Assembly (NCBI GenBank): GCA_000002445.1
Contig: CP000066.1
Coordinates: 640,001 to 704,000 of the forward strand
Length of the DNA: 64,000 bases
Source: Trypanosoma brucei
Taxonomy: Eukaryota
Direction of reading: 5' to 3'
How positions within the stretch are numbered: the first letter of the stretch is position 1; the number at the start of each line of letters is the position of its first letter. The notes beneath the pieces were generated by a model, which was given only the letters and a program-made list of their open reading frames with translations, searched no databases and was not told the DNA's origin. This document shows positions 15,501 through 34,210 of the stretch, in pieces. The position numbers were made by a program, and so were the translations under genes.

Positions 15501-18500
15501 GAAAGGGCAGGGCAGAAGGGCAAGAATGCGTTCCCACACGTCACCATTGCCATTGCTCTCCATGGAGTGAATCTCATCGAGAATTACGTAATCGATAAGG
15601 TCAACCCATTCAGCGTACTTGGGTGAAAGCAACATGGTTTCAAATGTCTCGGGCACAGTCAGAAGTACTTGGCAGGAATCGTGGAACTGATGGTAGTCGG
15701 CCCCACCAAGAACACCATAAATATATTTACCACTATTTTTGTACTCTTTGGACCCATAGCGAGCGCAGACATCGGCCACCGCTTGATTAATCAACGCACG
15801 GGCGGGAGCAAGGTACACAACAATCCGCCTGTTGGAGCGGCGAAGAGTGTTATACATGCAGTAATACGAAACAAACGTTTTCCCAGCTGAAGTTGGGGCA
15901 CACACTACAGCACTCCCGCGATTGTCCACGATGTCAAGGAGCTCTCGCTGCCAACTGTCTGGGTTGAAGGCAACGCGGTAATCGGGTCTTCGAATGACCG
16001 GCCGCTCAAGCAGGTGTCCCATGTGAATGAGTTGCATCATTTCTGGTGTGTCGGTCAGTTGCCGCATCCGCGGGAGCATCGTTGGCCCTAACAAACTCGG
16101 TGCCTTATTTTGCCACTGAGTGATGGCACGGTCCAGCTTGCTGTAGTAATCTTCCCCAAAGTCCAGGTGCCTCAGAGCGGAGCGTACCGTGTCAAGGTCC
16201 TCTTGCGATATTTGCAGACCCTCGTTTTGGACCACCGACAAGACGTGATGGTGGCAATAAAGAAACAGCGGAATGGCTACCGATAGATCCGGTGTTTCCT
16301 TGGCCAAACGGGCACGCTCCCGCTCACTACGCCAGTTTTCGAGACGAAGTTTAACTACGAAGCATTTGATTTTCATCTGGATGTGCAGTTCCACGTAGGA
16401 CAGATACACCCACCGCAGGTACGACGCAGCTTCCGCGCTTGTTATATCCGACTTGAACTTCCGCAGCCCCTCCAGTTCTCCCCATTCTGTGCTCTTATCA
16501 CTTATGGTGGCGACGAGGTTATCAATGACTGTAAAACCGTATGGCACAGCAGTCTCCGTCTTCAAGCCCTTTTTCTTGACAGCGCGGTTCTTTGCCGAGG
16601 GATCTTCAAGCGTGAGCGCAAACTCCGCCTCACGGAGCCCACTGGAAGCCACAAGCAGGCGCCACATGGAAATCTTTAACGAAATATCGCTACCTTCACT
16701 CTTTCCAATCGTGCGATCGGGCTCGAAACCTTTGGTGAACTTTGCCTCCGCGAGTCGCTTGACTGCAGCCAAAAGTTTCTTCACAGCGTCATCACGATCT
16801 TTGTTGGTCGTACGTCCGTGCGTTGGGTCGATGCTGCGGAGGTGATCGTCCATTTGCTTCAACCAACTCTGAATGCTACTTGCGGCGTCTTTCAAATTCT
16901 TCTGCTCACGAATTTCATCATCCTTGCTACGCCCCTTCTTATTACGCTGTCCCTCGTGCTCATTATTCCCCTTTTTCTTCTTCGCGGCCGCACCCTTACC
17001 ACACCCTCCTGCACCTCCTGATCCAGCGGCGTCAGTGCTTTCTTGCTCATTATCCGAGCAAACCAAAGTTAGTGGTTGGGCGGCGAAACCACTTATTCCC
17101 ATGGACTGCGCCTGCTGGAAGGCGTTACGGACGAACTTCGTCTGAAACTCCTGCGCATGTCTTGCTTCCTTCTCAGTCATGTGAATCTTTGCCTCACGCT
17201 CCCCATCAGCATCAGTAACGTCGTTGAACTTGTCGAAAGGAGTGGTTATATCCCACCCAATAAGCTCATTGGCGGCGCCGTAGCCATCGGGTATCGGCCG
17301 CTTTGCCTTGTGTCCCTCCACCTTGAAGGTTTTGGCCAGGTGCTCTACTAACTCGTGTTTAAGGTACGGATATTCCTGAAGCTGCACAGGTTGAGGCTGA
17401 GCTAGCTCAGGGAGGCTCCTAAACGGTGTCGAGGTAATGTCAAGTGTGTCGTCGTCCATAAGATACTGCCAAGTCATGGAGATGTCCCCTACACCGTCTT
17501 CATCCAACAAATGGCTTGGCGCTTCTTCGCGTAGCAATCGCGCAACGGCGTAGAGGAGATGTCCGTCGATAATGTCGAATACCTGACCGCCTCCGTTGTC
17601 GCAGCCAGCGTGTCGAAGTGCGCTAAGGAGAAATGGTGAGATATCCGCAATAAAGTTTTGGAGCACGGCGCTGGGTAATGCCGCCTGGGCCCTGGCCTCG
17701 CAGCTCAGTATTCCCACAATGTAAGCCGTTATAACAAGGGCCTGACAAAGCTGCTGCTCTTGTTCGCTTCGTTCCTTCATGGTTAGATAGGTGCGTACTG
17801 CCGAACAGACAATCTTCTCACGGAATGTCAGGTCCTCGTTCAGCACGTTCAATGATTTTTGGGACAATGTGGGCAACGTCACTTCACGTTCGAGTGATTG
17901 AGCCAACGCGCGCACCTCCGGCTCGATTCCCAGCGAGCGCTCAAGGGTTGAGCCGTCCACGCCCATGGTGAAGACGATCATAGAGTTCTCCCTGTAGATG
18001 ACACGAGACGAGTACGCGACTTTGAGGCGGCGGGAGGCTGCCCAAAGCAGCAGACATCGAATATACATAGCCGCATCATTTCCTATTTCCTCGTCCTCAA
18101 CGATGCTCCTGTACGGCCGACGTGCAGGCACAGCGACGGCACCGCTGGAGTTGACACCTGAGGATGCATTAGTTGTTTCAACCTCCGGATTGACAAAAAA
18201 CTCTTGCAGCGGGTTCAAGGAACCCAGTTGCTCACCGTCAGACATGAAGATAAACTCCGGCTCCCACTCTTTCAGGTAGGTCTCAAAGGCCTCACTATGG
18301 AAACTTGGAAAGGTACGCACGGTGAAGCGGGAGCCGCCTGGGCACTCGCTCGCGGCTGTCAGTGCCAGTCGTAAGTTTTCCCTCATCAGCATTTTCGCAG
18401 GGGCTCGTTCCCACATCCACAACATACTATCGAAGAAAACAATGTGGAATCGGGCCCCGCGGCACTCCATATCGAAGAGCAGCTTTTGTGCATTGTACAT

Positions 18501-19034
18501 GACATGTAATGGCTGTATGAGGTCCCAGTCTACATTTGGTGGTGAGAGGGCAGACATGAACAAGGAATCACCGTCTATAAAAAACATCTCCGTTGCGGCA
18601 AGATGTGCGAACATGTCACAGAGTTCGGGCCGTGCAGTGGCGTAATGGTGCTCCACCGCCGTACGCAGCAGCTCTTCTTCAATCACAGCTCGCATCTTCC
18701 CATCCTTCTGGACGGCAGCAACAAGGAACTTCCACGCATTGCGTTCCTCTTCCTCGTGCTTCAGGGTGCCGACAATTCCACCGGCTGGTGGCTTCCCTCC
18801 GTTTCGGAACGCGGATAACACGGCGTCACATACGCGACTTAATGCGCTGCGGCGACGTGCAACTTGAGCGATTTTCCCCTCATATGAGGCATCAGCCTCT
18901 TCCTGAATCGGAATGTTTTTGGCTTCGAAAATGGCCTGTAGGGCCCCTACGGTATCCATAGGAATTTTTAAAAAATCATCATCCTTGAGACAGTTACCGA
19001 ACAGCAGGTTAAGATCCCGTTGCTGAGTAGCCAT
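12522..19034 (-). CDS. Giant (2170 aa) superfamily-2 DExH-box helicase of the Ski2-like / DDX60-like type, with a ~1000-aa N-terminal extension.
   Basis: True ATG at 19034. Ordered helicase motifs: I VVCAPTSAGKTF, Ia VVYLAPARALINQ, Ib LLTVPETFE, II VILDEIHSME, III LSATLG, V FSTETLALGIHSP, VI QMMGRAGRRGLD. An acidic insert (EGEEDEGE) sits between the RecA lobes. Confidence 0.9.
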   Translation of the reverse strand: MATQQRDLNLLFGNCLKDDDFLKIPMDTVGALQAIFEAKNIPIQEEADASYEGKIAQVARRRSALSRVCDAVLSAFRNGGKPPAGGIVGTLKHEEEERNAWKFLVAAVQKDGKMRAVIEEELLRTAVEHHYATARPELCDMFAHLAATEMFFIDGDSLFMSALSPPNVDWDLIQPLHVMYNAQKLLFDMECRGARFHIVFFDSMLWMWERAPAKMLMRENLRLALTAASECPGGSRFTVRTFPSFHSEAFETYLKEWEPEFIFMSDGEQLGSLNPLQEFFVNPEVETTNASSGVNSSGAVAVPARRPYRSIVEDEEIGNDAAMYIRCLLLWAASRRLKVAYSSRVIYRENSMIVFTMGVDGSTLERSLGIEPEVRALAQSLEREVTLPTLSQKSLNVLNEDLTFREKIVCSAVRTYLTMKERSEQEQQLCQALVITAYIVGILSCEARAQAALPSAVLQNFIADISPFLLSALRHAGCDNGGGQVFDIIDGHLLYAVARLLREEAPSHLLDEDGVGDISMTWQYLMDDDTLDITSTPFRSLPELAQPQPVQLQEYPYLKHELVEHLAKTFKVEGHKAKRPIPDGYGAANELIGWDITTPFDKFNDVTDADGEREAKIHMTEKEARHAQEFQTKFVRNAFQQAQSMGISGFAAQPLTLVCSDNEQESTDAAGSGGAGGCGKGAAAKKKKGNNEHEGQRNKKGRSKDDEIREQKNLKDAASSIQSWLKQMDDHLRSIDPTHGRTTNKDRDDAVKKLLAAVKRLAEAKFTKGFEPDRTIGKSEGSDISLKISMWRLLVASSGLREAEFALTLEDPSAKNRAVKKKGLKTETAVPYGFTVIDNLVATISDKSTEWGELEGLRKFKSDITSAEAASYLRWVYLSYVELHIQMKIKCFVVKLRLENWRSERERARLAKETPDLSVAIPLFLYCHHHVLSVVQNEGLQISQEDLDTVRSALRHLDFGEDYYSKLDRAITQWQNKAPSLLGPTMLPRMRQLTDTPEMMQLIHMGHLLERPVIRRPDYRVAFNPDSWQRELLDIVDNRGSAVVCAPTSAGKTFVSYYCMYNTLRRSNRRIVVYLAPARALINQAVADVCARYGSKEYKNSGKYIYGVLGGADYHQFHDSCQVLLTVPETFETMLLSPKYAEWVDLIDYVILDEIHSMESNGNGDVWERILALLPCPFVALSATLGETQQLCGWLNRVQSRLKEQAVDTPAKARDYRVHVLPSEGQTIQRWNDIKKYIYLPPPDTRTSLKKLTTTYENRYIHDLHPLSILTTDQLQRGFPPDITLVPSEVVSLFGEMRTAFDNIIWPKLSSIPRVQMLQSKLKLLEPGRYFEADLYITQQRARLYEREVKDAFAQWVLLSNSSVKKPDISSDEQVKEFNSTMKHATETILAAFAQKLNEKEAALGSYAVAAMERKRAQQQSRTNTEGRSEQESDEAVPEAAFPGSRQFIREQSLNVLREISARDMGPAIVFSFESEDCEDLVKYVVEQLEEAEERYRQTEEFALYKAKVERAAAEREARHKQRESTLKQKRLRTNEDGEVERAERDVDEGEEDEGEVCEVPDILPEFTFIGAGCSVEPDVVKELIKDCEGEGEDLLLRALKRGIGMHHAGVKGKLRGHVERLFRGRHCGVIFSTETLALGIHSPCRSVVLAGDHILLNPTQFRQMMGRAGRRGLDHLGHLIFLGITMQRIKRLMTSGMTVIKGNVQMDPISQLRLLQLYDYNTHRSLKHEDAWKQHVKKLAERLFVNPLFFQRREAFAQSNMEGFTIEYLQMLLVFLQKQGLHFRDRPSSLGSLLQDVMYVFREAHVGNEGFAFIRMLTSGVFHEAHYPPALDKELHSGVTDEPIAELLAYLFSFHQTCGVPLEIHRSALLDPAVSVVWEGKTNATQHRVVLSPVDVCSPSVRPFDNTEFFALLSAFYNQLASRLDEKKEKEEKGKEQEEEEEEESSEGPRLPYVETGGDQLIFGNGAGDFPLMDALKESAVQFKARHPFVAISGCGDVFTSVDEVVFSLRDDLFCDRRLLPVLDVSDGWRHDGAQVLINACLADFLRVKAQIDTTRKNYRFTMLEELNGLSQSLSYSVLNRAEKLISNLAGLVRKAHLPAASILTAIMPDESFTAQEEGYSAGAPRLLKVAERLNSLQLQIQKRFAEEKYAAKKAKWVSELAAKRNEQK

Positions 19035-19786: not shown

Positions 19787-22234
19787 TTAGTTTGAGGTAC
19801 CAGGAGCTAGAAGGGTGCCACCACTACCACCGGACACGAGCGCCGGACCAAGCAAAAAACATGGAAAGGCGTACAGCAGCACCCAAACAATACGAAAAGA
19901 CGCCACTGGAACACTGATCATCCAAACAAGGGGAATCAGCACAAGGAGAATGCACAAATGCGGTGACAGCCGCTGAATCCATGGGCTGGCCAAAGCCTTG
20001 GCCAAAGAAGACAGTTTGTCCCTATGAAGCTGCTCACAAAACCGTTGCTCATGATATAAAGGCCACATCACGTATGAGAGAATAAGCACGAGTAATAGCA
20101 CCTCCACGGCGCGACTGGTGAAGTCCACTACGGTGGCATCGTCAAACGTGGCTGATCGCAGCGCGTTCCTCCACGCGAAGAAGGGATGAAGGTGAATTAA
20201 GTGCAAAAGGGCGTAGGCCGACACTAACATATACGCCTCCTCCCTTCTGCCGTCACTGCTGTCAAAGGTAGCGGTTTGATATGACGCAGAGAGAGGCAGT
20301 AGAACTATAGTGAGACACAACCACACTAGGGCGCGGTCACATATACGCAGCGGTAACAACACACCACACAGAAAAACAACTACACCAAACACAGTGACCG
20401 GTATTATCCGGTTCCACGGCTCATCGCAATTATCATCGCTACGTGTGGGCGACCTGCGAACCCACCGCGGTAGTCTTAGATAGATGCACGCACGATGAGT
20501 AACCAACCAGAATTTCGTCCATCCAAACTTACTTCCCCTCAAAAGCAGCTGAAGCAAGCGATAAGCAATAATACCCATCCATATGCCTTTCAACGCGGGG
20601 CCGGAAGCGGCAAAAGCACACCAAACCAACATGAGAGGATCAAATGTGGGTTTGCACACAAGCGTGTCAGCGATCCAGGGCGACTTACATCCTTCCATTG
20701 CTGGTAGCAGACAACATGGTATCTGCACGAGTAACAAGTGGCCCACAATTCCCATTATCGGGGTAACCATAACAACAGCCGTGTGCGATGACGTGAACAA
20801 TGATTTCCATGACCAATCTGCGCAGCAATGGGACAGCACACGGAGGTTCAGCAGCAGCCGCAGCAGCAGCGGGTGGATCGCGGAGAGGACGAAAGAACCG
20901 TATGAAAACGCCACCAACACGGTAAGGCCGACATGAGTGTAACTCGCCTCCGCCCACCACGAAAAGGCATCTGAAAAGGAGTGCGGCGGAGGTGCTGGAT
21001 CATTGATGCCCTCTGGTAAAGACCAGTTCCGCAACTTAAGGTTCCTTGACTCGGGTGAAATACCATCCCCCCTGACCAGAGAATTTCTAATAACGGCAGA
21101 GGTCCAGAATTCAACAACACAGTAGTCCCTCATTATATCGTCATGAGAAAACGTCTTTCCACACACTTTTGGGTGCTCTGTGGTGACATCAATACACGAC
21201 CCATTGTTGCACCCAATGCTGTCACTGAGGCGCGTGTGTTTAGACTGCACCATCAAGTCTAACGGCCCCGACGTAAGTGAAAGAATGCGGGGATTGCGAT
21301 AGCCGTTGCGGTCATTAGCCAACACATTTTTCTGAACAGGATCCCAAAGTGTTTTGTACAACCTCCACATGGGCAGGTCAAGAAAAACAGGCATCTGACG
21401 GTTTGGACTGTTCAGTGTAATAACTCCGGCAATCAACGGGAAAACCTGTGAGTCTGATAGAGTCGACAGCGCCATTCGTACCACAACGCCACCCATGGAG
21501 TGACCAATGAGCCATATGAAGGGAGGGTTATGCGTCTCGTTTTTTCGGTCTTCATACAAAGTTATTATTGTATCCGCTACAAAATCTGCCTGATGATGCA
21601 GAAGAGCACCGCGATGGGCATTTGCCTGCTCGGAGAAATCAAAGGTGTACAACCTTCCCTTGATTTTTTGCTCCTGCAAAAAAAGAATGCCAAGCCGGTG
21701 GGCCTGCATGTAAGAGCCTGCGTTTCCATGAGCAAAGAATATAATTACCTCCGGCGGCTTTTCCTGCGTCGGTGCGTATGTGCTGTAACAATCAGGACAA
21801 CTGACTTCAAAAAAGGAGTACGGCGGGCTGCTTCCCCTGTTACTCCTCTCGTCACCCCACTTCGGATTCTGCAAGAACAATCTTCGATAACTCAGTGGGT
21901 GCCACGCAACCGAGTCCGGAAACACACGAAATCGGTTGTTGTTGGCGTAGTCCCTGATCTGTAACCCAAGTCGCACGACCGAAAGTGCGTAGAGCAGTGC
22001 AGCAGCCAAAGAAAACAGTGTAAATAGCACAACGAGATTTTTCTTCCTTTGCGGAAGGGATGTCGCAGCCGGATTGACACCTGACGAGGGGGCACCAATT
22101 CCACTTAACTCTTCATCTTCTTGGCTAGGCATATGTTCGTCGCACAAACCTTTGTCGAAGCAGTACCCACTGACAGGTCCGTCCCCTGTATATGCACTGC
22201 AATCATCCTCCCTTTCATCACCACAAAGGCGCAT
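19787..22234 (-). CDS. PGAP1/Bst1-like GPI inositol-deacylase (815 aa): alpha/beta-hydrolase head plus a multi-pass membrane C-terminal half.
   Basis: True ATG at 22234. PGAP1-type motifs IIFFAHGNAGSYMQ, lipase nucleophile elbow LIGHSMGGVVV, and TLNSP. An N-terminal TM segment (LVVLFTLFSLAAALLYAL) and many C-terminal hydrophobic segments are present. Confidence 0.8.
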   Translation of the reverse strand: MRLCGDEREDDCSAYTGDGPVSGYCFDKGLCDEHMPSQEDEELSGIGAPSSGVNPAATSLPQRKKNLVVLFTLFSLAAALLYALSVVRLGLQIRDYANNNRFRVFPDSVAWHPLSYRRLFLQNPKWGDERSNRGSSPPYSFFEVSCPDCYSTYAPTQEKPPEVIIFFAHGNAGSYMQAHRLGILFLQEQKIKGRLYTFDFSEQANAHRGALLHHQADFVADTIITLYEDRKNETHNPPFIWLIGHSMGGVVVRMALSTLSDSQVFPLIAGVITLNSPNRQMPVFLDLPMWRLYKTLWDPVQKNVLANDRNGYRNPRILSLTSGPLDLMVQSKHTRLSDSIGCNNGSCIDVTTEHPKVCGKTFSHDDIMRDYCVVEFWTSAVIRNSLVRGDGISPESRNLKLRNWSLPEGINDPAPPPHSFSDAFSWWAEASYTHVGLTVLVAFSYGSFVLSAIHPLLLRLLLNLRVLSHCCADWSWKSLFTSSHTAVVMVTPIMGIVGHLLLVQIPCCLLPAMEGCKSPWIADTLVCKPTFDPLMLVWCAFAASGPALKGIWMGIIAYRLLQLLLRGSKFGWTKFWLVTHRACIYLRLPRWVRRSPTRSDDNCDEPWNRIIPVTVFGVVVFLCGVLLPLRICDRALVWLCLTIVLLPLSASYQTATFDSSDGRREEAYMLVSAYALLHLIHLHPFFAWRNALRSATFDDATVVDFTSRAVEVLLLVLILSYVMWPLYHEQRFCEQLHRDKLSSLAKALASPWIQRLSPHLCILLVLIPLVWMISVPVASFRIVWVLLYAFPCFLLGPALVSGGSGGTLLAPGTSN

Positions 22235-22833: not shown

Positions 22834-25800
22834 TCACTCACGTTTTAGTGGCCACTGAAGGAATTTAACTGCACTCACAAGTTTATTCGATATAATAACG
22901 GAGATATTCACCGACACATCTCTCAGGAGGCATACTACACGCCATGGTTGTGGAGGTCGCGAGACACGCGTATGACTCGCAGCGTCGGCCACAACCGCAC
23001 CTTCAATGCGTGTGCGAAGGCAGAGGCGTAAATGGGAATCTTCCAGCCTCACGCTTGTTCGTTGATGGAGAGCAGGTTGCTCCGACGCGTGCAGCGAGGG
23101 GCGGATAGTTTGACCCGCATTATGGTTCATGAGACTTGGTTCCACTGGACTCTTTACTTCCATCAAACGTGGCGAAGCAAAGCCGCTACTGAAGTTGCGC
23201 AACTCCCCTTCATGATTAGTGCCGCCTTGCAGCCTCACACATCCACTCACCTCGCATCCCCCCGGTGCCTCATAGCAACTGCCGCAGCTACCAAATTGTG
23301 TGGAATGGCCACATTGGACAGCTGCTAAGGTAAACGAACTTATATCTAGTCCTTGTATTGGCCCGGACCTCGAGTGCTTTCCCTCATTTCCATAATCCCA
23401 TGGTTGGTTATCAGCACACCATGGCAAGTCGCTCCACGGGATAGAAGTTGTGGGTGATTGGATTCCGCCATGTGCAGCCGTGGAAGAGGCTATTGCATGC
23501 AACACAGAATTCTTCAGTGTTACTGTGGCATGTCTTGCTACAATGATCTCCTTGTAGATGCAGTAGCCGCTACATCCCGTGAGTGATACCTTGGCACACT
23601 CTGCTTGTAAGGCAGGGCCCCCAACAGCACTTATAAATACACTTCGAGTTGCCTCCAGAGAGCTGTCACTAACAACAAATACAGCCTCCGAGCCGGCAAA
23701 AACACAGCGAGTGGCAGCAACCCTTGAATCCATTGCCACCGAAAGCCGTCGCACACGTACATTCTCCAACACCAATGAAGACCCATCCGTAACATGCAAG
23801 CGTACAGGCAATATTGGGGTGTCTGAATCACTCCGCTTCGTGGGTTTTGGTGCTTGCTGGTCACTTTCTTCATTTAATGGGCACCCACCATTTTGTCTTG
23901 GACCAATATCAATATCAGCTGCGGATGTGCGGTAGCGTACGTCATCACGCGGCACACCCGCCACAGCAGCCGCAGGTCTTCTGGACTCTTCTCGTGATGG
24001 TAACCTCCCGGAGTGAGTGGCTCCCTCTGATGTGCTTCGGTGAAAGAAAAATGTCATATTCTTATTGTGCATTGGGGGAACTACATCAGCAGCCCCGCAC
24101 ACCTCACCCCTGGCCCCGCTATGCAGTACTAATGTGTGCCAAATCACCTTGCTGTGAAGTTGGCCTATTTCTCCAGGCTTAAATGAATCAGTGGCACGGG
24201 GGACATGGCCAGATGAAGTGCCGCGAGACAAACCGGCTTTGTTTGCAAGACATGGTGTTGGAACACATTGCAGCAAGACATTGCGCAGTCGAACATACGC
24301 ATTCGATCCCTTAGCAAAGATGGCAGCCCGCACTGCCGGGCATTTGTGCCCACAATCACATTTGTCTTCTTCCAGGACATTCAACTGTGCAGCTTGCGTT
24401 TCCTGCACTATTACATAACACGAGTTCATGGACAGCTGGCCGCCTTCATAAACACGAATGGGACACCCCACTTGCTCTAATACACCATCTAACTCCAGAG
24501 ACTGCGGCGCCATATCCGCAGCGGCAGCAGCATCACCGTCCAGGTGAAGAACGGTGTTGTCGAGTACACATTTCCCAAAAATTCTCACATTCCCCTGCAG
24601 GACGCTGAAGACATTCTTCACACTGGAAAAACGAGAAAACACCTGTGATGCTGTCACGCGGATAGCTCCGCCATGGGAAACTAACAGCGAGTAATTCCAC
24701 ACATTTTGTGCTAAGCAATCAGATAGATACACGTTCGACCCAACTAGAGCGTTGAAGGCGACGTTGCAAAACTCTGCCTTACACCGATACAGGTACGCGA
24801 CAGCTTCGGCACCACACCTCACCGCAATCGCCGCGCCGCCGCCAAACACTGCATTATGAATAACAGCCGTCCCTTTGTCCATCACAAAACAAGATGGGGG
24901 TTGACCGCAAAGACTAGAGCAAGTGGTTGCGGGTCCCAAAGGGCCTGACAGCCGACATGCTCCAAAGTCTCCGGATACGCTGACCTCTAAGAGGCTATCC
25001 ACCGTCGCGTCAAATCTTGCACCGCAGTTTACGTGGACACCTGAGCGCGAGAATCCGCTAATCTTCACATTGCCCTCAACCTGCACAATGCCGTTTCTGT
25101 TCTCAATACCGCACACCCGCGCCCTGTAACTTCCGTGATGAACAATGCACGTTCCCTGATTGAGCACAAGCACACCAACATGGTTACACTCAGTAGTACA
25201 GTGATTAAGACAACATTTCGCACTATCCACCAGGTAACCGTTGGCAACGTCGGACGCTACACATTGCCAGGCCTCCATCTCCGTATCCGCGTCAAGCGCG
25301 GCGTAACCAAAAGTTACGTGACGAACTTCGCACGCAGTTAACTCACAATGGCTACCTGCCCACGCCTTTACACCTAAACTCCACGTTCCACCGCATAAGC
25401 ACGTGGGGGAAGTCGTGGCGGTCTCATCCAAATCCCTGCAAACGCCGCACCCTCCGTCGACACTTACGGAACTGCAAGTGATGACGGGCGCGTACACCGG
25501 CGATTCAGTCGATTGGGGCTCGCCTGGTAAATCGGGCGGCGCTACGGAAGCTGTACAGCCATGGAACGGGTCATCGCTCATGTCCACCATACACTTTTTG
25601 AGGCATAAATAGCCACCGTTGTGAGAAGTAAAACCGCTCTCAAGACTTCCACGGACGGTAACGCCAACGCATCGAACGTGACTCGACCGGCTATCCAATC
25701 CGCGAATGCGGCACTGAAAAATGCAGGGGATGCCACCCAATATACAGTGTGGTGCGTCCGAGTTGTCTATGCTAAGCTTAGACTGATTAAAGGCGAGCAC

Positions 25801-28683
25801 CCCAACCTGCTCTGCGTATGCCCCACAGGAATATAACCTGCACTCCGCACCATCAAACACAAAACTGTTGGATCGGCACACCCCCACGCATTCCCTGCAA
25901 AGAACAACAGATCCTTGGGAGGCAGTAAACCCAAGAGAGTGATCAGTAACTAAGCAGCGACTCAATGTTGCACTACTGTTCACAATTCTAACCGCGCACG
26001 TTTTACGCGATGCCGGAAGTGTCGACATGACGATCACGTCGGTTAACTCGATAGAACTTTTATCGTAGGCAAATATGGATGTTATCCCGGTGTCCTTCAG
26101 TATCAAACCCCTGGCCACGACAGTTGCCTCGCGTACCTCTAGCCCAAATGCACCTCCTACGAACGACAGCGGCAGTAAGGTCTCCGTGTTCGCTTCCGTT
26201 GCTACACCTTCACAGTCATTGCTATTGTTTGCTTTATTCGCTTTACTTTTGGTGGTGCCACTTCCCCTCCGCTTTTTCGAAAAAGCTCTTCTAATAGAGG
26301 AGACATAATCATTTTCTTGCTCAACTTCATCCACAGCCAACGGCAGGGCAGACTTGTGTACGCCGCGCCAGCCGCGACCCATGTCGTACCGCAGCTCACC
26401 TCCCTCCACAGTAAAAACTGCATTGCTCTCGTTATCCCCCCCAGATCCACAGGTATTCATTAGAGGCAGTCGGTACCAGCCGTTTTCACGACCACGTAGC
26501 GCCAGTAGCGTGCGGCAGCGTTTCTCAAATAGCTCTGGGGGTCCTGCGTCGTTGTTGATTGTGCACTTGGCACCGTTCAAAGCAAATATGCCCACATGAT
26601 TTGTGAAGGCAGAGCTGCTGTCAAATGTTGCACGTGAGGCTTCAACTGTGTATCCGTTAACGACGTGCTCAGCGTGGCAACTGTAGAAGTGTGCCACCGA
26701 GTGTGATATCACTGAAAAACCAAAATAAACGTACTCAGCGAGGCAGTGACGGGCGGTAACCAATCCACCCAGCTCTACACTGAGGCCCGTGGGACGGTTA
26801 CCGTCGGATGCCTCAAAAACGACTTGATCCCCGCCATAAAACCGAGTGCCAGCGAAAAAAGCCCGGCATCCAGCAACGCTCACGGCATTGATGTAGCCAG
26901 CCATGATGTCACAATCAGAGATATCCACAGAAGCATCCTGCTCAGCAAGAATAACCCGCTCACACTCGGACGGTGCAATACTGCATCCGCCACGGGCACA
27001 CAACCGTGCGCTATTTGAAACATGAATAAAAGAATGCAAAACGTTCAGGGAGGCCACTCCCGTAAAACCAGTGTCCTGGCAATCAGCGGAAGGGGGAGCA
27101 TAGCGCTTCATCACGGTCCCATCGCGCAGATCCAACTTCGATTCATCCAATACTAGAATTCCCTCGCGGTAGCCATCCGGCACATCGACGAACAACTTTG
27201 AACGAGAGAAAATCACTTGACCCTGCCCTTCCACCACAATGCTTCCGGTGACAATACAACTATCTACTTCCAGCGTTCCTAATACGGTGATAACGGAGGC
27301 ATACACCTCGAGTTTTTGCAACCGTAACGTACAATCTGGTGGAATTACACACTGCTCGGTGGTGCTTGACCATCTGATGGAGGTGAGGAAAGACTCTACT
27401 CCGCTCCCACCCTCACCACAAAGGACCAGTCGGATGGGGGCACATTCACAGGTTTTGTTCTTGTCGCAGAAGGCACAGTTGATCCCAGTCCCCCCACTCC
27501 CCCCTTCGCCAACGGAGTTGCTTTCTTCTCCAGCTTCTCCTTCACTTGCAGCGCATGTGCAGATCACTGGGGTCACCTCGTCCCTCCCCTCCTCGGCTAA
27601 GCGAGACAAAACTTCATTTTCCATTGTTTCGGCGGCATCCGTCTTGCATTCTCCCGCCCCAGCTGAACTCCCAAAAGCGGGGCTATTGACTGTGGGATTC
27701 GCATTGTTATCTAGCGGTGGATTAAGCATCCCTTCCCTCGCGCACAGCGGCGCAAGCAAAATGTTAAAAGATAAGTTTTCGCGAAGTGCGCCACTGGTGG
27801 ACGGGAGGTTGCAAACGAACATATCATCATCCACAACCGTGTCCTTGGTAGGGTGCTCCGGTGACTGAAACAACGCCCGCCTTCGTGGAGCGTCCAAGAA
27901 AATGTCCATCACCTCAGACGAGAAACGCATCTGCTGCAATTCTCCACATGAACACACCACCTTCTCCCTCCGTGTCGTGCCCGAATCCCCTTCAATCCCG
28001 TCATCACTTGTGATTGCAGAACTGCGCTGCCCCTCATCGTTCGTTACTGCCGTGGCTGCTGCTGATAGCCCCTCCCTTGTTGCAAGTTGGTTTGCCTCGG
28101 GAATTCGCTTTTGTCCAGTAACCTTACTTCTGAAGAGATGCGGGTGGGAGTTTCGAATGTGTTGGATTCCTAAGTCATGCTCCTCAAGAGAGTAGGCGGA
28201 AGCGGCTGACTGCTGTGGCATCCATGCGGCATCGTCGTTTCCTCCATGAGCTCCATTCCCAACCAACCACCGCCGCGACTCATCAACTGTTACTCTGCTG
28301 TCACACCCGAACGGGTTGAGTGTTGTGTAAAGGGAGTGAAACAGCAAACTGAGACCCTCCACATCCACCGTCCACTGCTGAGACATGAGTTCAAAAGAGC
28401 AAATGGCTCCATAATGGATAAACGTCGCAAAGAGACGGGGCGAGACAACAAAAACAAGTGGCATGCGCTGCAGCTCTTCTAAAAAAAGCACTCGCAGGGA
28501 GATGATAAACTCTTTCTTGTTCTCATCCTCGTAGCGCAACTGAACGAACCAGTTGGTCAGGTCATCCTCGTCAAGAAGCTCAACAGCAGTGCAGCAACCC
28601 CCTAATAGCGTGTGAAGGTTCTGCTTAAAATGGGCATAAAGCCGTTGTAGGCGTTGAAGGTACGAAGTGGACAGTTGGAGCAT
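22834..28683 (-). CDS. ~1949-aa protein with an N-terminal UBC/E2-like (or UEV-like) fold followed by long Cys-rich arrays that look like parallel beta-helix (PbH1/CASH-type) repeats.
   Basis: The track ORF starts at TTG (28977). In-frame ATGs are at 28887, 28860 and 28683. I prefer 28683 because a coding-strand pyrimidine tract (+ 28771-28800) with AGs precedes it and the upstream residues are hydrophobic junk. E2-like segment: LTNWFVQLRYED..FIISLRVLF..PLVFVVSPRLFATFIHYGAICSFELMSQQWT..LLFHSLYTTL. Repeats resemble G.SV..G..V....C.....Y.GFSV. Confidence 0.7.
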   Translation of the reverse strand: MLQLSTSYLQRLQRLYAHFKQNLHTLLGGCCTAVELLDEDDLTNWFVQLRYEDENKKEFIISLRVLFLEELQRMPLVFVVSPRLFATFIHYGAICSFELMSQQWTVDVEGLSLLFHSLYTTLNPFGCDSRVTVDESRRWLVGNGAHGGNDDAAWMPQQSAASAYSLEEHDLGIQHIRNSHPHLFRSKVTGQKRIPEANQLATREGLSAAATAVTNDEGQRSSAITSDDGIEGDSGTTRREKVVCSCGELQQMRFSSEVMDIFLDAPRRRALFQSPEHPTKDTVVDDDMFVCNLPSTSGALRENLSFNILLAPLCAREGMLNPPLDNNANPTVNSPAFGSSAGAGECKTDAAETMENEVLSRLAEEGRDEVTPVICTCAASEGEAGEESNSVGEGGSGGTGINCAFCDKNKTCECAPIRLVLCGEGGSGVESFLTSIRWSSTTEQCVIPPDCTLRLQKLEVYASVITVLGTLEVDSCIVTGSIVVEGQGQVIFSRSKLFVDVPDGYREGILVLDESKLDLRDGTVMKRYAPPSADCQDTGFTGVASLNVLHSFIHVSNSARLCARGGCSIAPSECERVILAEQDASVDISDCDIMAGYINAVSVAGCRAFFAGTRFYGGDQVVFEASDGNRPTGLSVELGGLVTARHCLAEYVYFGFSVISHSVAHFYSCHAEHVVNGYTVEASRATFDSSSAFTNHVGIFALNGAKCTINNDAGPPELFEKRCRTLLALRGRENGWYRLPLMNTCGSGGDNESNAVFTVEGGELRYDMGRGWRGVHKSALPLAVDEVEQENDYVSSIRRAFSKKRRGSGTTKSKANKANNSNDCEGVATEANTETLLPLSFVGGAFGLEVREATVVARGLILKDTGITSIFAYDKSSIELTDVIVMSTLPASRKTCAVRIVNSSATLSRCLVTDHSLGFTASQGSVVLCRECVGVCRSNSFVFDGAECRLYSCGAYAEQVGVLAFNQSKLSIDNSDAPHCILGGIPCIFQCRIRGLDSRSSHVRCVGVTVRGSLESGFTSHNGGYLCLKKCMVDMSDDPFHGCTASVAPPDLPGEPQSTESPVYAPVITCSSVSVDGGCGVCRDLDETATTSPTCLCGGTWSLGVKAWAGSHCELTACEVRHVTFGYAALDADTEMEAWQCVASDVANGYLVDSAKCCLNHCTTECNHVGVLVLNQGTCIVHHGSYRARVCGIENRNGIVQVEGNVKISGFSRSGVHVNCGARFDATVDSLLEVSVSGDFGACRLSGPLGPATTCSSLCGQPPSCFVMDKGTAVIHNAVFGGGAAIAVRCGAEAVAYLYRCKAEFCNVAFNALVGSNVYLSDCLAQNVWNYSLLVSHGGAIRVTASQVFSRFSSVKNVFSVLQGNVRIFGKCVLDNTVLHLDGDAAAAADMAPQSLELDGVLEQVGCPIRVYEGGQLSMNSCYVIVQETQAAQLNVLEEDKCDCGHKCPAVRAAIFAKGSNAYVRLRNVLLQCVPTPCLANKAGLSRGTSSGHVPRATDSFKPGEIGQLHSKVIWHTLVLHSGARGEVCGAADVVPPMHNKNMTFFFHRSTSEGATHSGRLPSREESRRPAAAVAGVPRDDVRYRTSAADIDIGPRQNGGCPLNEESDQQAPKPTKRSDSDTPILPVRLHVTDGSSLVLENVRVRRLSVAMDSRVAATRCVFAGSEAVFVVSDSSLEATRSVFISAVGGPALQAECAKVSLTGCSGYCIYKEIIVARHATVTLKNSVLHAIASSTAAHGGIQSPTTSIPWSDLPWCADNQPWDYGNEGKHSRSGPIQGLDISSFTLAAVQCGHSTQFGSCGSCYEAPGGCEVSGCVRLQGGTNHEGELRNFSSGFASPRLMEVKSPVEPSLMNHNAGQTIRPSLHASEQPALHQRTSVRLEDSHLRLCLRTRIEGAVVADAASHTRVSRPPQPWRVVCLLRDVSVNISVIISNKLVSAVKFLQWPLKRE

Positions 28684-28770
28684 CTGCTTCTTCCTCCTGT
28701 GCGTCCACCTCACGATCCAACCCTCTTCTAGAGCTATTGGAGAGAGAAACGGAGTAGAAGCCCTTATCAA

Positions 28771-28800
28771 ACGGAAGAGACAAAAAACAAAAGACACACA
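28771..28800 (-). promoter_or_regulatory. Polypyrimidine tract and downstream AGs: probable trans-splice acceptor region for the 22834..28683 gene.
   Basis: The coding strand reads tgtgtgtcttttgttttttgtctcttccgt, followed by AG dinucleotides before the ATG at 28683. Confidence 0.45.
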
Positions 28801-30203
28801 AGTTGGCGTACGGCACTCGGTAAGTAAAGTTAGCAGAGAGCTAAAACAAAAGTAAGACATAAAAAATAATTGCCCTTCCGCTTTCATGAGAAGCAGCCAC
28901 CCCCCTCCTCCCAGCGACGGCTGCCGTTTCCATACGAGAGGGGAAACAGGTGACAACCACTTGAAAGAGAAATGCAAACGATAACAACATCATATACCCA
29001 ACACAAGCAGTCAAAGTGGGCTACGCGGCAAAGTGCTGGCAGCGGAAGCAAAACACACTATGATAATAGGATGACAAAGTGGAAAAAAAACAGAATGACA
29101 AAGATGACGGGTAGCACTACAACAATAATTCTTTTGAGAATCACTACGAGCAGGTCTCGTGGTTTTCCTGTCCCTCTGTGAGAAACGACAACGTAAATCG
29201 AAATAAACAAAAATAAAGGCACAATATTGTAGGAGAAGGGTCTTTTCATCCTGATATCCCCGTTCTTTTTCTTTTTCTTGGTTCGTGAGATACCCGTACG
29301 GGAAACTGAGCAAACACGTCTGCCCTGTTGAAAGGGGGAAAATGGACCACGACATTTCCAAAAATATAAAAGAACACCACTTTGTACTCCCTCTCGCTCC
29401 CCATTGCATAATCATACGAACTCTCTTGCACCACATGGCGCTTGTCTCTAATGCTTATGAAGCTGCTCTTCCCCTTACAGCGCGGCCGCACTCCGCTGCG
29501 CAACGGAAGACACCACGAGAAGAAAACAATAACGCACACCTCAGTCGACCTTCAATTTCCCATGCACTCCACCGCGGTGTGCCAGCCTTCTCGCTTCACT
29601 TTCTCTAGCTGATATTGTTGACGGTAGCCACATCATCTTACATCTACAATGCAAAAGATTCCCGCAGCATCTTCCGGTGCACACGACAACTACGGTACAG
29701 GGCACCTCATGATGGTGAGATGCTATTTTTAAGGCCAAATGTGCTCGATGTCACATAACCTGCGCTTTGAGTCTGCGGGTACACACATTTGTCATTTCCT
29801 CGGCGAAATGTTCATCCGCTACAATGTTAGGCCATTTCCGTCTCTCTTCGGGCACTTGTCTGTGTGCGTACGCGGCGGAGCACATAGTGCATATATGAAT
29901 GTCTATCTGATTGAGGACAGGAGCTTCAGCTCGACAATGGCCACGCGAACTCTTTGGGACTATTGAGTGGAAACATTATGAATGTCAACTGATCGAAAGG
30001 AAATACAAAGAAAAGAACGATTAACGACTACATTGGGTGTACTGCGCGAACGAAACAGTGAGATAACAATATTAAGCGCTTTGTGTCGATGCCCACGAAT
30101 ACCACAAAACGCACCTCTTCCCTCCAAGTGGCATCGATAAGGTAACGAGTCACCCAAAGTCCCACCCAACCCTTCAGATATTGGTGAAAGCCTCCTTCAC
30201 TTC

Positions 30204-32552
30204 TCACAGTGCAGCTGCCTGTTGCTGTTTCATGCACTTTACAACCGAGGCAAATCTGGAAAAAACCATCGACAGCTTCACAACCCTCCTTCGTTTCCCT
30301 TGTGAACGGTTGTTTGTATCCTTCGCTGCACCGTCGCTTTCATGCCGGTTATCATTCCATCGCACCTCCAACTGTAACCGTTCGGTCTCCACAGCAGCAG
30401 CAACCCGAGGGGCGAGTTGAATAACCTCTTGGGGCATCGTAAATGTGTTCGCTGCTAAGAGCTCACGCCCTACCAAGAGGTCAACAAGGGCAACTGCGCG
30501 CCGTTGCCAGAGGGGCACAACATTAACTGTTTTTACACCATCACTAGTGGCAGTGTCATGTGCCTTAACACGCCGAGCGCCCACCAGCCTCGTAAAGACG
30601 TAGGCAACCTCAACAACAAATGGGTGCTCATTTTCTCGCGGTATTTGAAGCAGGGCAGAAAGTAATTTCTCCACAAGTCCCGGGCGCTCCATCAGAAACC
30701 TAAGTGACTTCACGCCAGCATGCGCATCATTTAACAATGCCTCATACAGAGCTGTGGCTTGAGCATCCAATGCGCTGCACCGCGCAGCTTGCCCTTGGCA
30801 ACGACAATATTCCATTGTTATAGATACGATGTGATTGAGGCTCTCAAGAAACACCGGGAGTGTTCCGATGTCAATGAAACTAGTGGTAAAGTGGCCGACC
30901 TGCTTCGCAGATGTGGCAGAACGTTCCGCAGCGGGTAGCCCCTCAGCAACTCCCAGTGGCTCCGAAGAGCAGGTCCGAGTGGAGAACAACTGCAACTCAT
31001 CATCATCATCATCATCATACCCACCGCTTTCTGCGGTATCCATTGCGCCAGCATCAGTGCCGGGGCAGTCTAGCTCCGCTGTCACTACCCCTGAGGCTAC
31101 CAGAGAGGCGCTATCCAGTTTGTGGTGCCGTTTTTTTAATGATGTTGACTGAGTGTCGTAGCGGCAGCCGCGTTTCCGCATTGCATTGAGCAGCGTCTGC
31201 AAGAGTAACTCAGTTGTTTCTACCGCGCACACCTTCACCTCACGACGTCCTAAAAATAGTACAACACCGAGGAATTGGCCGGGAAATGCCTTGATGGCCT
31301 CATGTAGCTGTGGAAGGAGCACCTCCGCACAATCATCTCGAAACCATTTGATCTTGGCCAGAGCCAACGTGAGGAAGAAAAATGTCGCTGGAGAGCCCTG
31401 CCGCGTGATGTGGAGAGAGCCATCCCTTATGCCGCGAACAAGCCCCCCTACTACCGTTTCATAAAGGGACACGTTTAGAATGGGGTGCTTGAGGTTCTCC
31501 ACTGCCACTGTTACAGTATTGATAGAGGAAACACCAGGGGAAGTTGTGTACCGATTCATCAGCGGCACTTCCGCCTTCAGCAACCTCATAAACCGGATCT
31601 GGCAACGCGATATGGCGTCCAGTAACACAGCATAGCTACTCACGCCGAACAACTCTCCTGCGTTCGAGCCAGGGGCGGAAGCACGCAAAGATAAATGAGA
31701 GGGACCCTGAAATGCGTTATTGTTTAGGTGAACCCTAATATTATCACATAAGGTTTCCAGCACGGCATCAGCGTGGAATAACTTTTGCTGAACGATAAGG
31801 TGAAGAAACGTCGCACTGCTAGATGGGCTAAAGCAAGCCACGCGGACCGTTAACCACTGAAGCAGTAGATGACTAAGCTCTGAGACCCACACTTCTCCCA
31901 CCGTATCGTCCATACAAGCAGCGACGACGGAGGTGTGCTGAATACTGTCCAAATTGATCTTCGCCAAAGTCCGCAGTACACACTCCAATAAGTAGTCACT
32001 TCGAAAGAGCGGCAATGAGCCTGTGGGTGCGGGAATATGACCACCCACACCCGTCCCCCCGCGGGCTTCTGGAACGGAAATTACAAAGGATGAAGGAGGA
32101 GCATCACGCAAGCGTCGCCATACCTCCACAAGGCACTGTACCATGTGTCCATGATGCATTCCTTTACATTCTGCCTCCATCCGGGTGGCAAGCTGTGGCC
32201 CAGAGAGTTCCCAAAGGGAGTGACGGTACATGGTTGAAAAGGTAACAACGTTGCCATTCGTCTGCAACCCGCCTCCTCCGGTTGAGTTTTTGCGCACCTG
32301 AGGATCCGGCTCTGTGGCGTGTTTTCTTCCAGCTGCGTCCTGTTCGTGACGACGGACGTCGGGATACGCGGCGTCATATGCCGCTCCATCTGCTGGAGGT
32401 GGCGGTTTCGGCGCTCCATCGGTTTCACTTAGCTCAGCGAACGCCTTTGCCAACTGCGATAGCGATAGCGGACGCAAAGAAACCGTTACGAGTGGTGCCG
32501 CGGCACGAGTGAGCACCATACCAGTAACCCGTGGGGAGCTAAACACCCGCAT
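30204..32552 (-). CDS. Conserved-looking hypothetical protein (782 aa from the first ATG). No domain recognised.
   Basis: Long uninterrupted ORF on the cluster strand. The track start at 32594 is TTG and the first ATG is at 32552 (MRVFSSPRVTGMVLTRAAAP..., basic and hydroxylated, possibly an organellar presequence). Contains a poly-Asp run (GGYDDDDDDE). Confidence 0.7.
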   Translation of the reverse strand: MRVFSSPRVTGMVLTRAAAPLVTVSLRPLSLSQLAKAFAELSETDGAPKPPPPADGAAYDAAYPDVRRHEQDAAGRKHATEPDPQVRKNSTGGGGLQTNGNVVTFSTMYRHSLWELSGPQLATRMEAECKGMHHGHMVQCLVEVWRRLRDAPPSSFVISVPEARGGTGVGGHIPAPTGSLPLFRSDYLLECVLRTLAKINLDSIQHTSVVAACMDDTVGEVWVSELSHLLLQWLTVRVACFSPSSSATFLHLIVQQKLFHADAVLETLCDNIRVHLNNNAFQGPSHLSLRASAPGSNAGELFGVSSYAVLLDAISRCQIRFMRLLKAEVPLMNRYTTSPGVSSINTVTVAVENLKHPILNVSLYETVVGGLVRGIRDGSLHITRQGSPATFFFLTLALAKIKWFRDDCAEVLLPQLHEAIKAFPGQFLGVVLFLGRREVKVCAVETTELLLQTLLNAMRKRGCRYDTQSTSLKKRHHKLDSASLVASGVVTAELDCPGTDAGAMDTAESGGYDDDDDDELQLFSTRTCSSEPLGVAEGLPAAERSATSAKQVGHFTTSFIDIGTLPVFLESLNHIVSITMEYCRCQGQAARCSALDAQATALYEALLNDAHAGVKSLRFLMERPGLVEKLLSALLQIPRENEHPFVVEVAYVFTRLVGARRVKAHDTATSDGVKTVNVVPLWQRRAVALVDLLVGRELLAANTFTMPQEVIQLAPRVAAAVETERLQLEVRWNDNRHESDGAAKDTNNRSQGKRRRVVKLSMVFSRFASVVKCMKQQQAAAL

Positions 32553-33015
32553 GCTGTCACCAACAGCTCCTTCTTCCCCGGCCCCTTCTACCAATAACTG
32601 TTAAGGTAACGAAACAACAACGACAACAACAGCAACAGCAACAGCAACGTGAGACAAACAAAAACAAACAAACAAACACAAAAACACAGTTAAAATAGCT
32701 TCCATACACACATTCACTCAACGCCAGAGGGCGGCAAGACACGTTAGATGCAACGAAGCAAACACAGCCAGTGCACAAAGAAAGAATGGTGGATAATAAC
32801 ACAAAGGAATTAAAGGTGAGCCAACTAGCACGACAGCGTGTCCACACCTTTCCATTTTGTGCTGTACACTGAATGATCACATCAAGAAGCGGGGGTAAAC
32901 TCCTGTCACCGCAGCATAAACCCAAACTGAAGTCGGACTGCAGGAGAGGACAGCCCGGAGACTCTCTACACAACCACCGTTATCGCTGCCTGTATACGTA
33001 TGGGTCCTGCACGGC

Positions 33016-34149
33016 CTACAAAACCTCTTCGTCCCCCAGTGGTGGGAAGCACACCAGTAATCGAACGTTGTCAACCCGCTCAACATTTGTTGGCTGCGCC
33101 GTCACCATACGCGGGCAAGGAATGCTGCCTGTTAACATTTTTTCTAAGTTAGCAATAAGCTGGCCGCTGTAACCTACTGGTCCGCCACTGACCGGGTCAT
33201 TTGAGTTAGCCCCCGCACCGGAAGCATCCCCCAAACCACTAGAATTAGTCCTAGTCAAGCCACGAACCAAACCATGCCCGCCCCGTGGACTTCCGAGGCC
33301 CCCAAAGGATTGCGTGTTGGGACCCCTGGCGGAACTATTACCAGCGCCGCCGCTGCTCGCGGTGGCTCGATACGGAAAGAGTATATCTCTACCAACGAGT
33401 GTCATGGCACTATCGCTTATACCCACGAAGGTTGACGTGACCTCTGAGGGGTACTTTTTCTGTACATGAGTAAAAACCATCTGACCCAAACGGTAAGGTC
33501 TGCTTTTGTGCGGCTCACCGCCAAGAGACTTGCGGGACGCCACAATATCCAAAATGAGACGGCAGCGCGGTGCATTGTGAGGAGGGTGCCACTGCTTCAA
33601 TAAGTTGGCCATAATCTCCTCATCCTCTTCATGCCGATCGCGGGCTGGCGACCGCTGCGACACATATGGGAGTGACGCCCTTCTCCCCCGCGATCCAACA
33701 TTCGTGATGGGAGTGCGATGATGTTTTGATCGCCCAATAACACTCTGTGACAAGGATGGCGTCTCTGAAGGATTGGAGGTCCGCGAGGCAACCCGCCAAC
33801 TGGTTTCCTTCCGCAAGAAAGTAGTAAGAAGTGTACTACTCAGCGGCGCTGAGGGAAGCATCAAAAGTTCCCTCACCGCGTGGACGCGTTGCGTCTGTGC
33901 GGGCAACTTCTCCCAGTAATCAACTGCAGCATTAAAGGCAATTCTGGCTGTCTCCACCATGGTATCCACAAGCTCGAACACCCCGAGCATCGCTTCTTCT
34001 ATTGTGTAGTCCCACTTGAACTCAAAGTTTGCGTACACACAAAAAAAGTTCAAGGGATCACACGCCAGACGGTCACGGAAGTGAGGAAAAATTGTTATAT
34101 TGTGCCTTTGCTTCGCCTCCTTCAAGGGGCCGGCTGTGGTGATGGACAT
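33016..34149 (-). CDS. Hypothetical protein (377 aa) with a Gly/Ser-rich C-terminal half.
   Basis: ORF on the cluster strand. The track start at 34158 is GTG and the first ATG is at 34149. A pyrimidine-rich 12-mer repeat lies upstream on the coding strand. Confidence 0.6.
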   Translation of the reverse strand: MSITTAGPLKEAKQRHNITIFPHFRDRLACDPLNFFCVYANFEFKWDYTIEEAMLGVFELVDTMVETARIAFNAAVDYWEKLPAQTQRVHAVRELLMLPSAPLSSTLLTTFLRKETSWRVASRTSNPSETPSLSQSVIGRSKHHRTPITNVGSRGRRASLPYVSQRSPARDRHEEDEEIMANLLKQWHPPHNAPRCRLILDIVASRKSLGGEPHKSRPYRLGQMVFTHVQKKYPSEVTSTFVGISDSAMTLVGRDILFPYRATASSGGAGNSSARGPNTQSFGGLGSPRGGHGLVRGLTRTNSSGLGDASGAGANSNDPVSGGPVGYSGQLIANLEKMLTGSIPCPRMVTAQPTNVERVDNVRLLVCFPPLGDEEVL

Positions 34150-34210
34150 CCGGATCACACCACGAACTGCGACCTGTAAATAGAGGGAAAGGAAACAGTA
34201 GGGGGAAATA

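Follow-up and report, generated by a model that had tools for sequence, protein, structure and literature searches.

UBE2J1 and UBE2J2 are ubiquitin-conjugating enzymes (E2s) of the endoplasmic reticulum, where a C-terminal tail anchor puts the E2 on the cytosolic face of the membrane. In FBXO10 and FBXO11, F-box proteins of SCF ligases, a right-handed beta-helix of the CASH/PbH1 type (Pfam Beta_helix/CASH) serves as substrate receptor. The UBE2J enzymes (Ubc6), with their non-lysine reactivity, and the UBE2Q enzymes are active without the His-Pro-Asn (HPN) motif and ubiquitylate serine, threonine, cysteine and even sugars (PMC10971424). In UBE2Q1, residues Y343, H409 and W414 substitute functionally around C351 and activity depends on them (PMC10971424). 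The kinetoplastid protein DGF-1 has been described in a preprint as extracellular, with a signal peptide, seven ribs, a hat domain and 7–9 transmembrane (TM) helices, and its hidden Markov model (HMM) screen is reported to have detected neither DGF-1 genes nor related domains in African trypanosomes (10.64898/2026.07.27.741050). Here, we describe a hypothetical protein of 1,949 residues, encoded on the minus strand of a 64,000-nucleotide stretch of Trypanosoma brucei chromosome 3 (contig CP000066.1, positions 640,001 to 704,000; hereafter ‘the window’), in which a predicted E2-like head is joined to a beta-helix body.

Both domains are known; a UBE2Q-type head on a beta-helix body, presumably ancestrally tail-anchored, is a new architecture. 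All coordinates given below are those of the window, and the features of the gene and its product are collected in Table 1.

The E2-like head

The first 190 residues of the protein are predicted to adopt the ubiquitin-conjugating (UBC) fold, with the UBE2Q subfamily as closest relative, a relationship that is visible only through family profiles and structure. Single-sequence searches of Pfam and the PDB with the full protein found nothing. A profile built from ten N-terminal sequences and compared with 177,635 PDB sequences returned UBE2Q1 (2qgx, E 0.008) and UBE2Q2 (1zuo, E 0.099) as its top two matches, with the cysteine of the GAIC motif in register. When 1.84 billion representatives were searched exhaustively with a profile, the result was 21 family members and one outsider, a stand-alone E2 (P0048; E 1.5e-4), which is itself UBE2Q-like, matching 2qgx (UBE2Q1) at 3e-17 and Pfam UQ_con above threshold. 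When the 27-sequence family alignment was used with hhalign, P0048 scored 98.2% (E 5e-14), the UBC domain of UBE2Q1 94.4% (E 9e-8) and UBE2D2 78.4%; the last two sequences were entered by hand, with agreement to the 2qgx alignment and to the residue numbering in PMC10971424 established for UBE2Q1.

Structure prediction gave a similar picture. The AlphaFold 2 (AF2) model of the head (predicted template modelling score 0.60; mean predicted local distance difference test, pLDDT, 64) has the topology alpha1-beta1-4-loop-alpha2...alpha, with helix and sheet modelled at high confidence, and almost all of its Foldseek matches are E2s. The N-terminal helix, four-stranded antiparallel sheet, extended loop and C-terminal helices of the E2 fold are all present in the model, and among E2 subfamilies UBE2Q is the nearest by similarity. 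Conservation of the first ~190 residues is also higher than in much of the protein.

One might argue that the N-terminus is not a UBC fold and resembles one by chance: the single-sequence searches were empty, the profile E-values are modest and the mean pLDDT is low. However, the transitive link through P0048, a bona fide UBE2Q-like E2, and the recurrence of the catalytic cysteine in register in every comparison leave this explanation barely credible. Assignments to the RWD domains and to the ubiquitin E2 variants (UEVs) were rejected: the cysteine at the catalytic position is kept, the RWD fold scores lower, and the sequence and structure scores for UEVs are likewise below those for catalytic E2s.

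An earlier sequence-only reading of this DNA had proposed, from alignment by eye, that the N-terminus follows the UBC core, and the independent sequence-profile and structure tests bear it out. Its placements also agree with ours for the segment around W45, which aligns with the conserved E2 tryptophan, for MPLVFVVSPRL, which aligns with the PPxVxFxTxI strand, and for GAIC95, which aligns with the catalytic GxIC. It was right that no intact HPN triad is present, but not about the position, which it gave as I89-H90-Y91; in the hhalign alignment with the hand-entered UBE2D2 sequence, the residues opposite H75-P76-N77 are A86-T87-F88.

The beta-helix body and the C-terminus

Residues 445–1344 contain, according to the structural model, three rigid right-handed beta-helix segments. 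AF2 modelling of residues 420–1355 assigned a pLDDT of at least 90 to 467 residues and produced three all-beta solenoid blocks, with stretches between the blocks falling below 50. Strand autocorrelation peaks at 7–8 and 21–23 residues (21–22 in block 2, 26–27 in block 1) correspond to three strands per coil of ~22 residues. Every top PDB match of the body found by Foldseek was a parallel beta-helix of right-handed type, drawn from phage tail fibres and spikes, alginate epimerases, pertactin and glucanases. In Pfam, the Beta_helix family (PF13229) went unmatched when the full-length T. brucei protein was scanned, but the fragment comprising residues 431–735 passes its threshold (26.8 bits, cut-off 25.9; E 4.6e-6). 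Block 2 stays below threshold (E 0.0067), orthologues match at E 1e-11 to 4e-15 and distant homologues at down to 5e-37. The blocks are as conserved as the head, block 3 being the best conserved part of the body (conservation 0.6–0.79).

The internal repeats of the body are too degenerate for self-BLAST, which found none, and Tandem Repeats Finder detected no tandem repeat at the DNA level; to bring them out took an HMM derived from orthologue sequences. With block 3 as its basis, such an HMM identified internal copies at residues 633–712 (E 7e-14; block 1) and 903–971 (E 1.6e-5; block 2), and these copies define a four-coil super-repeat of ~85 residues for which block 3 was the seed. It is marked by the motifs G-x-x-V, F-G-[FY], N-G-[FY]-T-[VI]-D and H-V-G-[VI]-F-x-L-N, with C-x-[AV] at the coil ends. 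A database search with the super-repeat profile gave no match at E≤0.001, family members included. The right-handed helix of PbH1/CASH type suggested by the sequence-only reading is thus recovered in the AF2 solenoid, the Foldseek matches and PF13229, and the repeat motif that it described matches those of the super-repeat; of the remaining ~1,700 residues, in which it saw many such units, ~700 in the three blocks can be assigned to the beta-helix.

Within block 1, a cluster of the form His661-x3-His665-x3-Cys669-His670 (window ~26674–26703, minus strand) is invariant in trypanosomatid orthologues but not preserved in distant homologues. Its role might be to bind a metal, or it may be purely structural.

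Most Foldseek neighbours of the body are polysaccharide lyases, epimerases, glucanases or phage depolymerases, and relatives of the protein show weak Pfam matches to NosD and Pect-lyase_RHGA_epim. These matches, together with a conservation of the blocks equal to that of the head, would fit a protein whose business end is the beta-helix—a carbohydrate-active enzyme (lyase-, epimerase- or hydrolase-like) or glycan-binding domain—with the E2 head as a regulatory or oligomerisation appendage. We consider this clearly unlikely, since identity to such enzymes is only 7–12% with weak E-values, and most conserved positions in the repeat hold Cys, Gly, Phe, Val or Asn-Gly-aromatic, which by eye look like core-stacking rather than catalytic residues. 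Inspection by eye, the only kind made, recognised no known catalytic motif, and a protein with no signal peptide would be cytosolic, where polysaccharide substrates are unusual.

Head and rod are joined by a poorly conserved segment, residues 191–444, which is probably a flexible linker. Its only part included in the AF2 run, residues 421–441, has a pLDDT below 50, and hhalign found no significant similarity between the linker and the super-repeat.

Beyond the third block, residues 1345–1949 have no Pfam match. The super-repeat HMM gives a marginal match at 1658–1741 (E 0.009), which hhalign does not make significant (E 0.17); by eye, residues ~1640–1760 and ~1870–1900 look beta-helix-like. 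The extreme C-terminus differs across the family. A single C-terminal TM helix (Kyte–Doolittle values 1.8–2.7) is predicted in the homologues P0035, P0036, P0037, P0038, P0046 and P0054, and the TM-tailed deep-branching members include Papus, Apiculatamorpha and the environmental sequences P0035, P0036, P0037 and P0046. The C-terminus is amphipathic in T. brucei (hydrophobic moment 0.47) and across Trypanosoma orthologues (0.46–0.62), and Leishmania orthologues have neither a TM tail nor an amphipathic C-terminus. This distribution suggests that a membrane anchor was lost during trypanosomatid evolution. No N-terminal hydrophobic segment or signal peptide is present at the start codon supported by orthologues; a C-terminal TM helix in the absence of a signal peptide predicts that the deep-branching members are tail-anchored, with their whole mass on the cytosolic side.

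Table 1 Features of the gene and of its predicted product (window coordinates)
Feature	Position	Strand	Evidence or remark
Complete coding sequence, 1,949 codons, with stop codon at 22834–22836	22834..28683	(-)	T. brucei chromosome 3 hypothetical protein XP_843855.1 / Q582X4 (TREU927)
68 upstream codons, ATG at 28885–28887 in TREU927 and DAL972 annotations	28684..28887	(-)	Annotated product 2,017 versus 1,949 residues
Predicted N-terminal UBC-fold domain, UBE2Q-like, residues 1–190	28114..28683	(-)	Family profile, hhalign, AF2, Foldseek
Predicted elements of residues 1–190: alpha1 6–27; beta1–4 31–36, 44–52, 58–66, 76–80; active-site loop; alpha2 108–121			
C-terminal portion of residues 1–190: variable loop 127–164; C-terminal helix 166–184; motif Y164-S-x-x-E-H ... 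H180-P-H-L-F184-R			
Codon of Cys95, candidate thioester cysteine, in motif F88-I-H-Y-G-A-I-C95	28399..28401	(-)	Alignment and conservation
Poorly conserved linker, probably flexible, residues 191–444	27352..28113	(-)	Column conservation 0.31–0.50
Predicted right-handed beta-helix block 1, residues 445–711	26551..27351	(-)	AF2 pLDDT mostly 86–96
Predicted right-handed beta-helix block 2, residues 840–1034	25582..26166	(-)	AF2 pLDDT mostly 80–97
Predicted right-handed beta-helix block 3, residues 1103–1344	24652..25377	(-)	AF2 pLDDT 80–97 except one loop; periodicity 22–23
C-terminal third, residues 1345–1949	22837..24651	(-)	Amphipathic end segment; no TM helix

Candidate active site and proposed function

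Cys95 aligns with the catalytic cysteines of UBE2Q1, UBE2Q2, UBE2D2 and P0048. None of the 27 family sequences, which range from Trypanosoma to the prokinetoplastids and take in the most divergent members, has another residue there, and the surrounding G-A-[ILV]-C is equally constant, while nearby positions vary. The retention of this cysteine noted in the sequence-only reading extends across the kinetoplastids. Nor does the missing HPN motif point to a UEV, because active UBE2Q enzymes naturally lack it. F88 aligns with Y343 of UBE2Q1 in both the profile and the hhalign alignments, and F88, H180 and F184 are invariant in trypanosomatids. Overall, we lean, to a modest degree, towards an active E2 head. 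Of the two roles that the sequence-only reading had left side by side—an atypical conjugating protein or a binding protein—the first is favoured over the second because Cys95 is kept in 27/27 sequences.

For the protein as a whole, we give a slight preference to a giant, kinetoplastid-specific enzyme conjugating ubiquitin or a ubiquitin-like protein, in which a presumed E2 carries its own targeting domain. In such an enzyme, an E1 would load ubiquitin as a thioester on Cys95, and, as in UBE2Q1, an aromatic/His/aromatic set, here F88, H180 and F184 (tentatively matched to Y343, H409 and W414), would hold the ubiquitin C-terminus for discharge, which may favour hydroxyl or thiol acceptors besides lysine. 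The beta-helix rod would be a built-in substrate-binding or scaffold module, by analogy with the CASH domains of FBXO10 and FBXO11, and the flexible linker of ~250 residues would let the charged head sweep along the rod to the substrates held there. The protein might thus work as a membrane-associated, self-targeting E2, much as UBE2O and BIRC6 act as E2/E3 hybrids. In its ancestral form, a tail anchor would have held it on the cytosolic face of a membrane, of which Trypanosoma would keep only the amphipathic C-terminus.

Several observations weigh against an active, self-targeting E2. Pfam UQ_con (PF00179) is matched neither by the full protein nor by any of ten N-terminal domains, even at E≤10, where only noise appears. 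In the AF2 model, the active-site loop (residues 82–101) and the C-terminal helix are of low confidence (pLDDT 35–56); C95, F88, H180 and F184 lie in such regions, which makes their spatial grouping uncertain. The equivalence of H180 with H409 of UBE2Q1, and of H180 and F184 with the His and Trp of P0048, comes from a global hhalign alignment of low confidence, in which the conserved A-Y-S-x-E-E-H ... H180-P-H-L-F184-R aligns with Q-Y-S ... H409 of UBE2Q1. In the Leishmaniinae orthologues (P0008–P0012 and P0030–P0033), a low-complexity insertion of 180–300 residues, rich in Ala, Ser, Pro and Thr, occupies the beta3-beta4 loop, at a site equivalent to window 28462–28482, between residues 67 and 74. 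In canonical E2s, the beta3-beta4 loop is an E3 contact surface, and the insertion might be incompatible with standard E3 partners. Membrane anchoring receives no help from the last 80 residues of the T. brucei protein, whose maximum Kyte–Doolittle value of 1.33 and charged residues do not fit a tail anchor. The role of the beta-helix as substrate receptor is argued by analogy with other proteins, and literature searches on the protein and its neighbour genes returned no localisation, phenotype, ligand or partner data and no TriTrypDB gene ID.

Some of these points would suit a pseudo-E2, that is, an inert UBC fold like those of UEV1/MMS2, TSG101 and AKTIP/FTS that serves as a ubiquitin-binding or docking module on a beta-helix scaffold. 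The absence of HPN and of a UQ_con match, the poorly modelled active-site loop and the large Leishmania insertion could all be read in that way. We regard a pseudo-E2 as rather unlikely, because Cys95 and its G-A-[ILV]-C context have stayed invariant in 27 sequences while their neighbours vary, whereas, to our knowledge, known pseudo-E2s have lost the cysteine. Moreover, the closest relatives, the UBE2Q enzymes, are active in spite of lacking HPN, and the best sequence and structure scores are to catalytic E2s rather than to UEV or RWD proteins.

A more specific version of the conjugating-enzyme proposal would be a built-in ‘glycan-ubiquitin ligase’: an E3-independent, membrane-proximal enzyme of UBE2Q type whose CASH-like helix, a fold common among proteins that bind or process carbohydrates, captures cytosol-exposed glycans, glycoconjugates or hydroxyl-rich substrates for the head to ubiquitylate through ester bonds. 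This is a long shot, but if true it would provide a biological setting of its own for the ubiquitylation of sugars and of Ser/Thr, which has been shown for UBE2Q1 mainly in vitro. More generally, a conjugating enzyme of this kind may offer a natural setting for non-lysine ubiquitylation chemistry. It would also add to the E2 repertoire a divergent protein of ~210 kDa that InterPro and Pfam domain searches miss. The L. mexicana E2 list, built by such searches, comprises UBC1–14 and UEV1 (16–49 kDa) and none of its entries has an orthologue on T. brucei chromosome 3, so that the present protein is absent from this one catalogue. The protein is conserved in all sampled trypanosomatid pathogens and, apart from P0048, no relative turned up among sequences lacking this architecture; it would accordingly be specific to these parasites within a pathway that is otherwise conserved.

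Gene model, distribution and comparison with known systems

The open reading frame (ORF) singled out by the sequence-only reading is present where it was placed (22834–28683, minus strand; 1,949 codons). It lies within a stop-to-stop frame of 22834–28977, and its product is 99% identical to the T. b. gambiense ‘hypothetical protein, conserved’ (P0001). The ATG at 28683 is probably the true start, with 28684–28887 representing 5′ untranslated region and a trans-splice acceptor region with a presumed splice site. We prefer this start because the 68-codon extension is missing from the orthologues, all of which begin at a methionine aligned with the ATG at 28683; because the DNA of the extension is pyrimidine-rich with several AG dinucleotides; and because the T. 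b. equiperdum gene model also starts at 28683 and also encodes 1,949 residues. The annotated upstream ATG was rejected as unconserved and lying in a polypyrimidine tract, so that the reference annotation probably needs its start codon moved 68 codons downstream. A start further downstream that removed the E2 segment, which the sequence-only reading had named as fatal to its proposal, runs counter to the protein-level conservation of residues 1–73 across kinetoplastids and to the aligned initial methionine of every orthologue.

The choice of start codon also bears on where the protein resides. Translated, the extension gives a hydrophobic, signal-peptide-like stretch, and if the upstream ATG used in the TREU927 and DAL972 annotations were correct, its 68 residues might act as signal peptide or anchor of a secreted or surface beta-helix protein, an adhesin like DGF-1 or the bodonins in which the likeness to E2s has no functional relevance. 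Kinetoplastids do have large families of surface beta-helix proteins (10.64898/2026.07.27.741050). Against such a protein stand the absence of the extension from every orthologue, its polypyrimidine-rich DNA with AG sites, as is usual where trans-splice acceptors lie, and the T. b. equiperdum annotation. From the homologues that have a C-terminal TM helix but no signal peptide, the N-terminus would be expected in the cytosol, and the DGF-1 HMM screen was empty for African trypanosomes (10.64898/2026.07.27.741050). A surface or secreted location is accordingly very improbable.

The family has named representatives in Trypanosoma, Leishmania, Novymonas, Leptomonas, Phytomonas, Bodo saltans and the prokinetoplastids Papus and Apiculatamorpha, and environmental sequences belong to it too. 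Nearly all members combine an N-terminal E2-like head with a beta-helix body, and because this architecture persists in Trypanosoma and Leishmania as well as in Bodo, Papus and Apiculatamorpha, it appears to be under purifying selection. Among the 1.84 billion representatives searched, P0048 was the only protein recovered from outside the family, and all named members are kinetoplastids. The sequence-only reading knew of no precedent for an E2-like head fused to a beta-helix scaffold; the combination is indeed new, but it characterises a kinetoplastid-wide family rather than T. brucei alone. Two environmental sequences, P0041 (178 residues) and P0043 (181 residues), consist of the family-type E2-like domain alone; either their gene models are truncated or the domain really occurs there by itself.

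The minus strand carries every one of the 16 ORFs in the window that reach 250 codons, and we read the window as a trypanosomatid polycistronic unit. The neighbours, all on that strand, include a 2,170-residue DDX60-like helicase with DDX60 PIN-like, DEAD and Helicase_C domains (12522–19034), a PGAP1-like alpha/beta hydrolase resembling glycosylphosphatidylinositol inositol-deacylase (19787–22234), a TatD-related DNase-like protein (35209–37398) and a leucine-rich repeat protein with a C-terminal ubiquitin-like domain, similar to tubulin cofactor E (39159–40823). ORFs 30204–32594, 33016–34158 and 37840–38697 had no Pfam match, and a scan of the window from 20 to 32 kb against Rfam gave none. 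A 209-codon ORF on the plus strand (27239–27868), antisense to the coding sequence and wholly within it, is most likely spurious.

Among described proteins, UBE2Q1, UBE2Q2 and UBE2QL1 provide the best match to the head in sequence and structure. Shared features are the cysteine in a G-A-I-C-x-E-L context, the absence of HPN and an aromatic residue, F88, at the position of Y343; the Y-S ... H motif of the C-terminal helix resembles Q-Y-S ... H409, and the Q-x-W-[ST] that follows the cysteine resembles Q-G-W-S-S. The differences are considerable. UBE2Q enzymes have an extended N-terminal RWD-like region followed by a C-terminal UBC domain of ~170 residues, whereas the T. brucei protein has its UBC domain at the extreme N-terminus, with no RWD-like extension before it and ~1,750 further residues behind it. 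The head also lacks the beta2-beta3 insertion of ~14 residues found in UBE2Q1, has a 40-residue variable loop before its last helix, replaces Tyr and Trp of the putative triad by Phe, and is too divergent for Pfam UQ_con.

UBE2J1 and UBE2J2 share with the T. brucei protein the lack of HPN and, with its deep-branching homologues, a tail anchor, but they are small and have no beta-helix, and the T. brucei and Leishmania orthologues have no TM helix. In the case of FBXO10 and FBXO11, the likeness is at the level of the Pfam family: the T. brucei body matches PF13229 and has coils of ~22 residues, but its helix is fused to an E2 instead of an F-box and is built from the family-specific four-coil super-repeat. 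DGF-1 ribs and bodonins resemble our protein as large kinetoplastid proteins with several right-handed beta-helix modules separated by low-confidence linkers (10.64898/2026.07.27.741050). Unlike DGF-1, however, the T. brucei protein has an E2 head and neither signal peptide nor TM cluster; membership of that family was rejected on its different architecture and on the reported absence of DGF-1 from T. brucei.

Giant E2s with built-in targeting domains are rare and mechanistically instructive, UBE2O and BIRC6 (BRUCE) being examples. The T. brucei protein has no homology to them beyond the UBC domain, which in UBE2O and BIRC6 is canonical, with HPN, and lies towards the C-terminus, accompanied by accessory domains that are not beta-helices; E3-independent activity has been demonstrated for those two enzymes and is hypothetical for the T. 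brucei protein.

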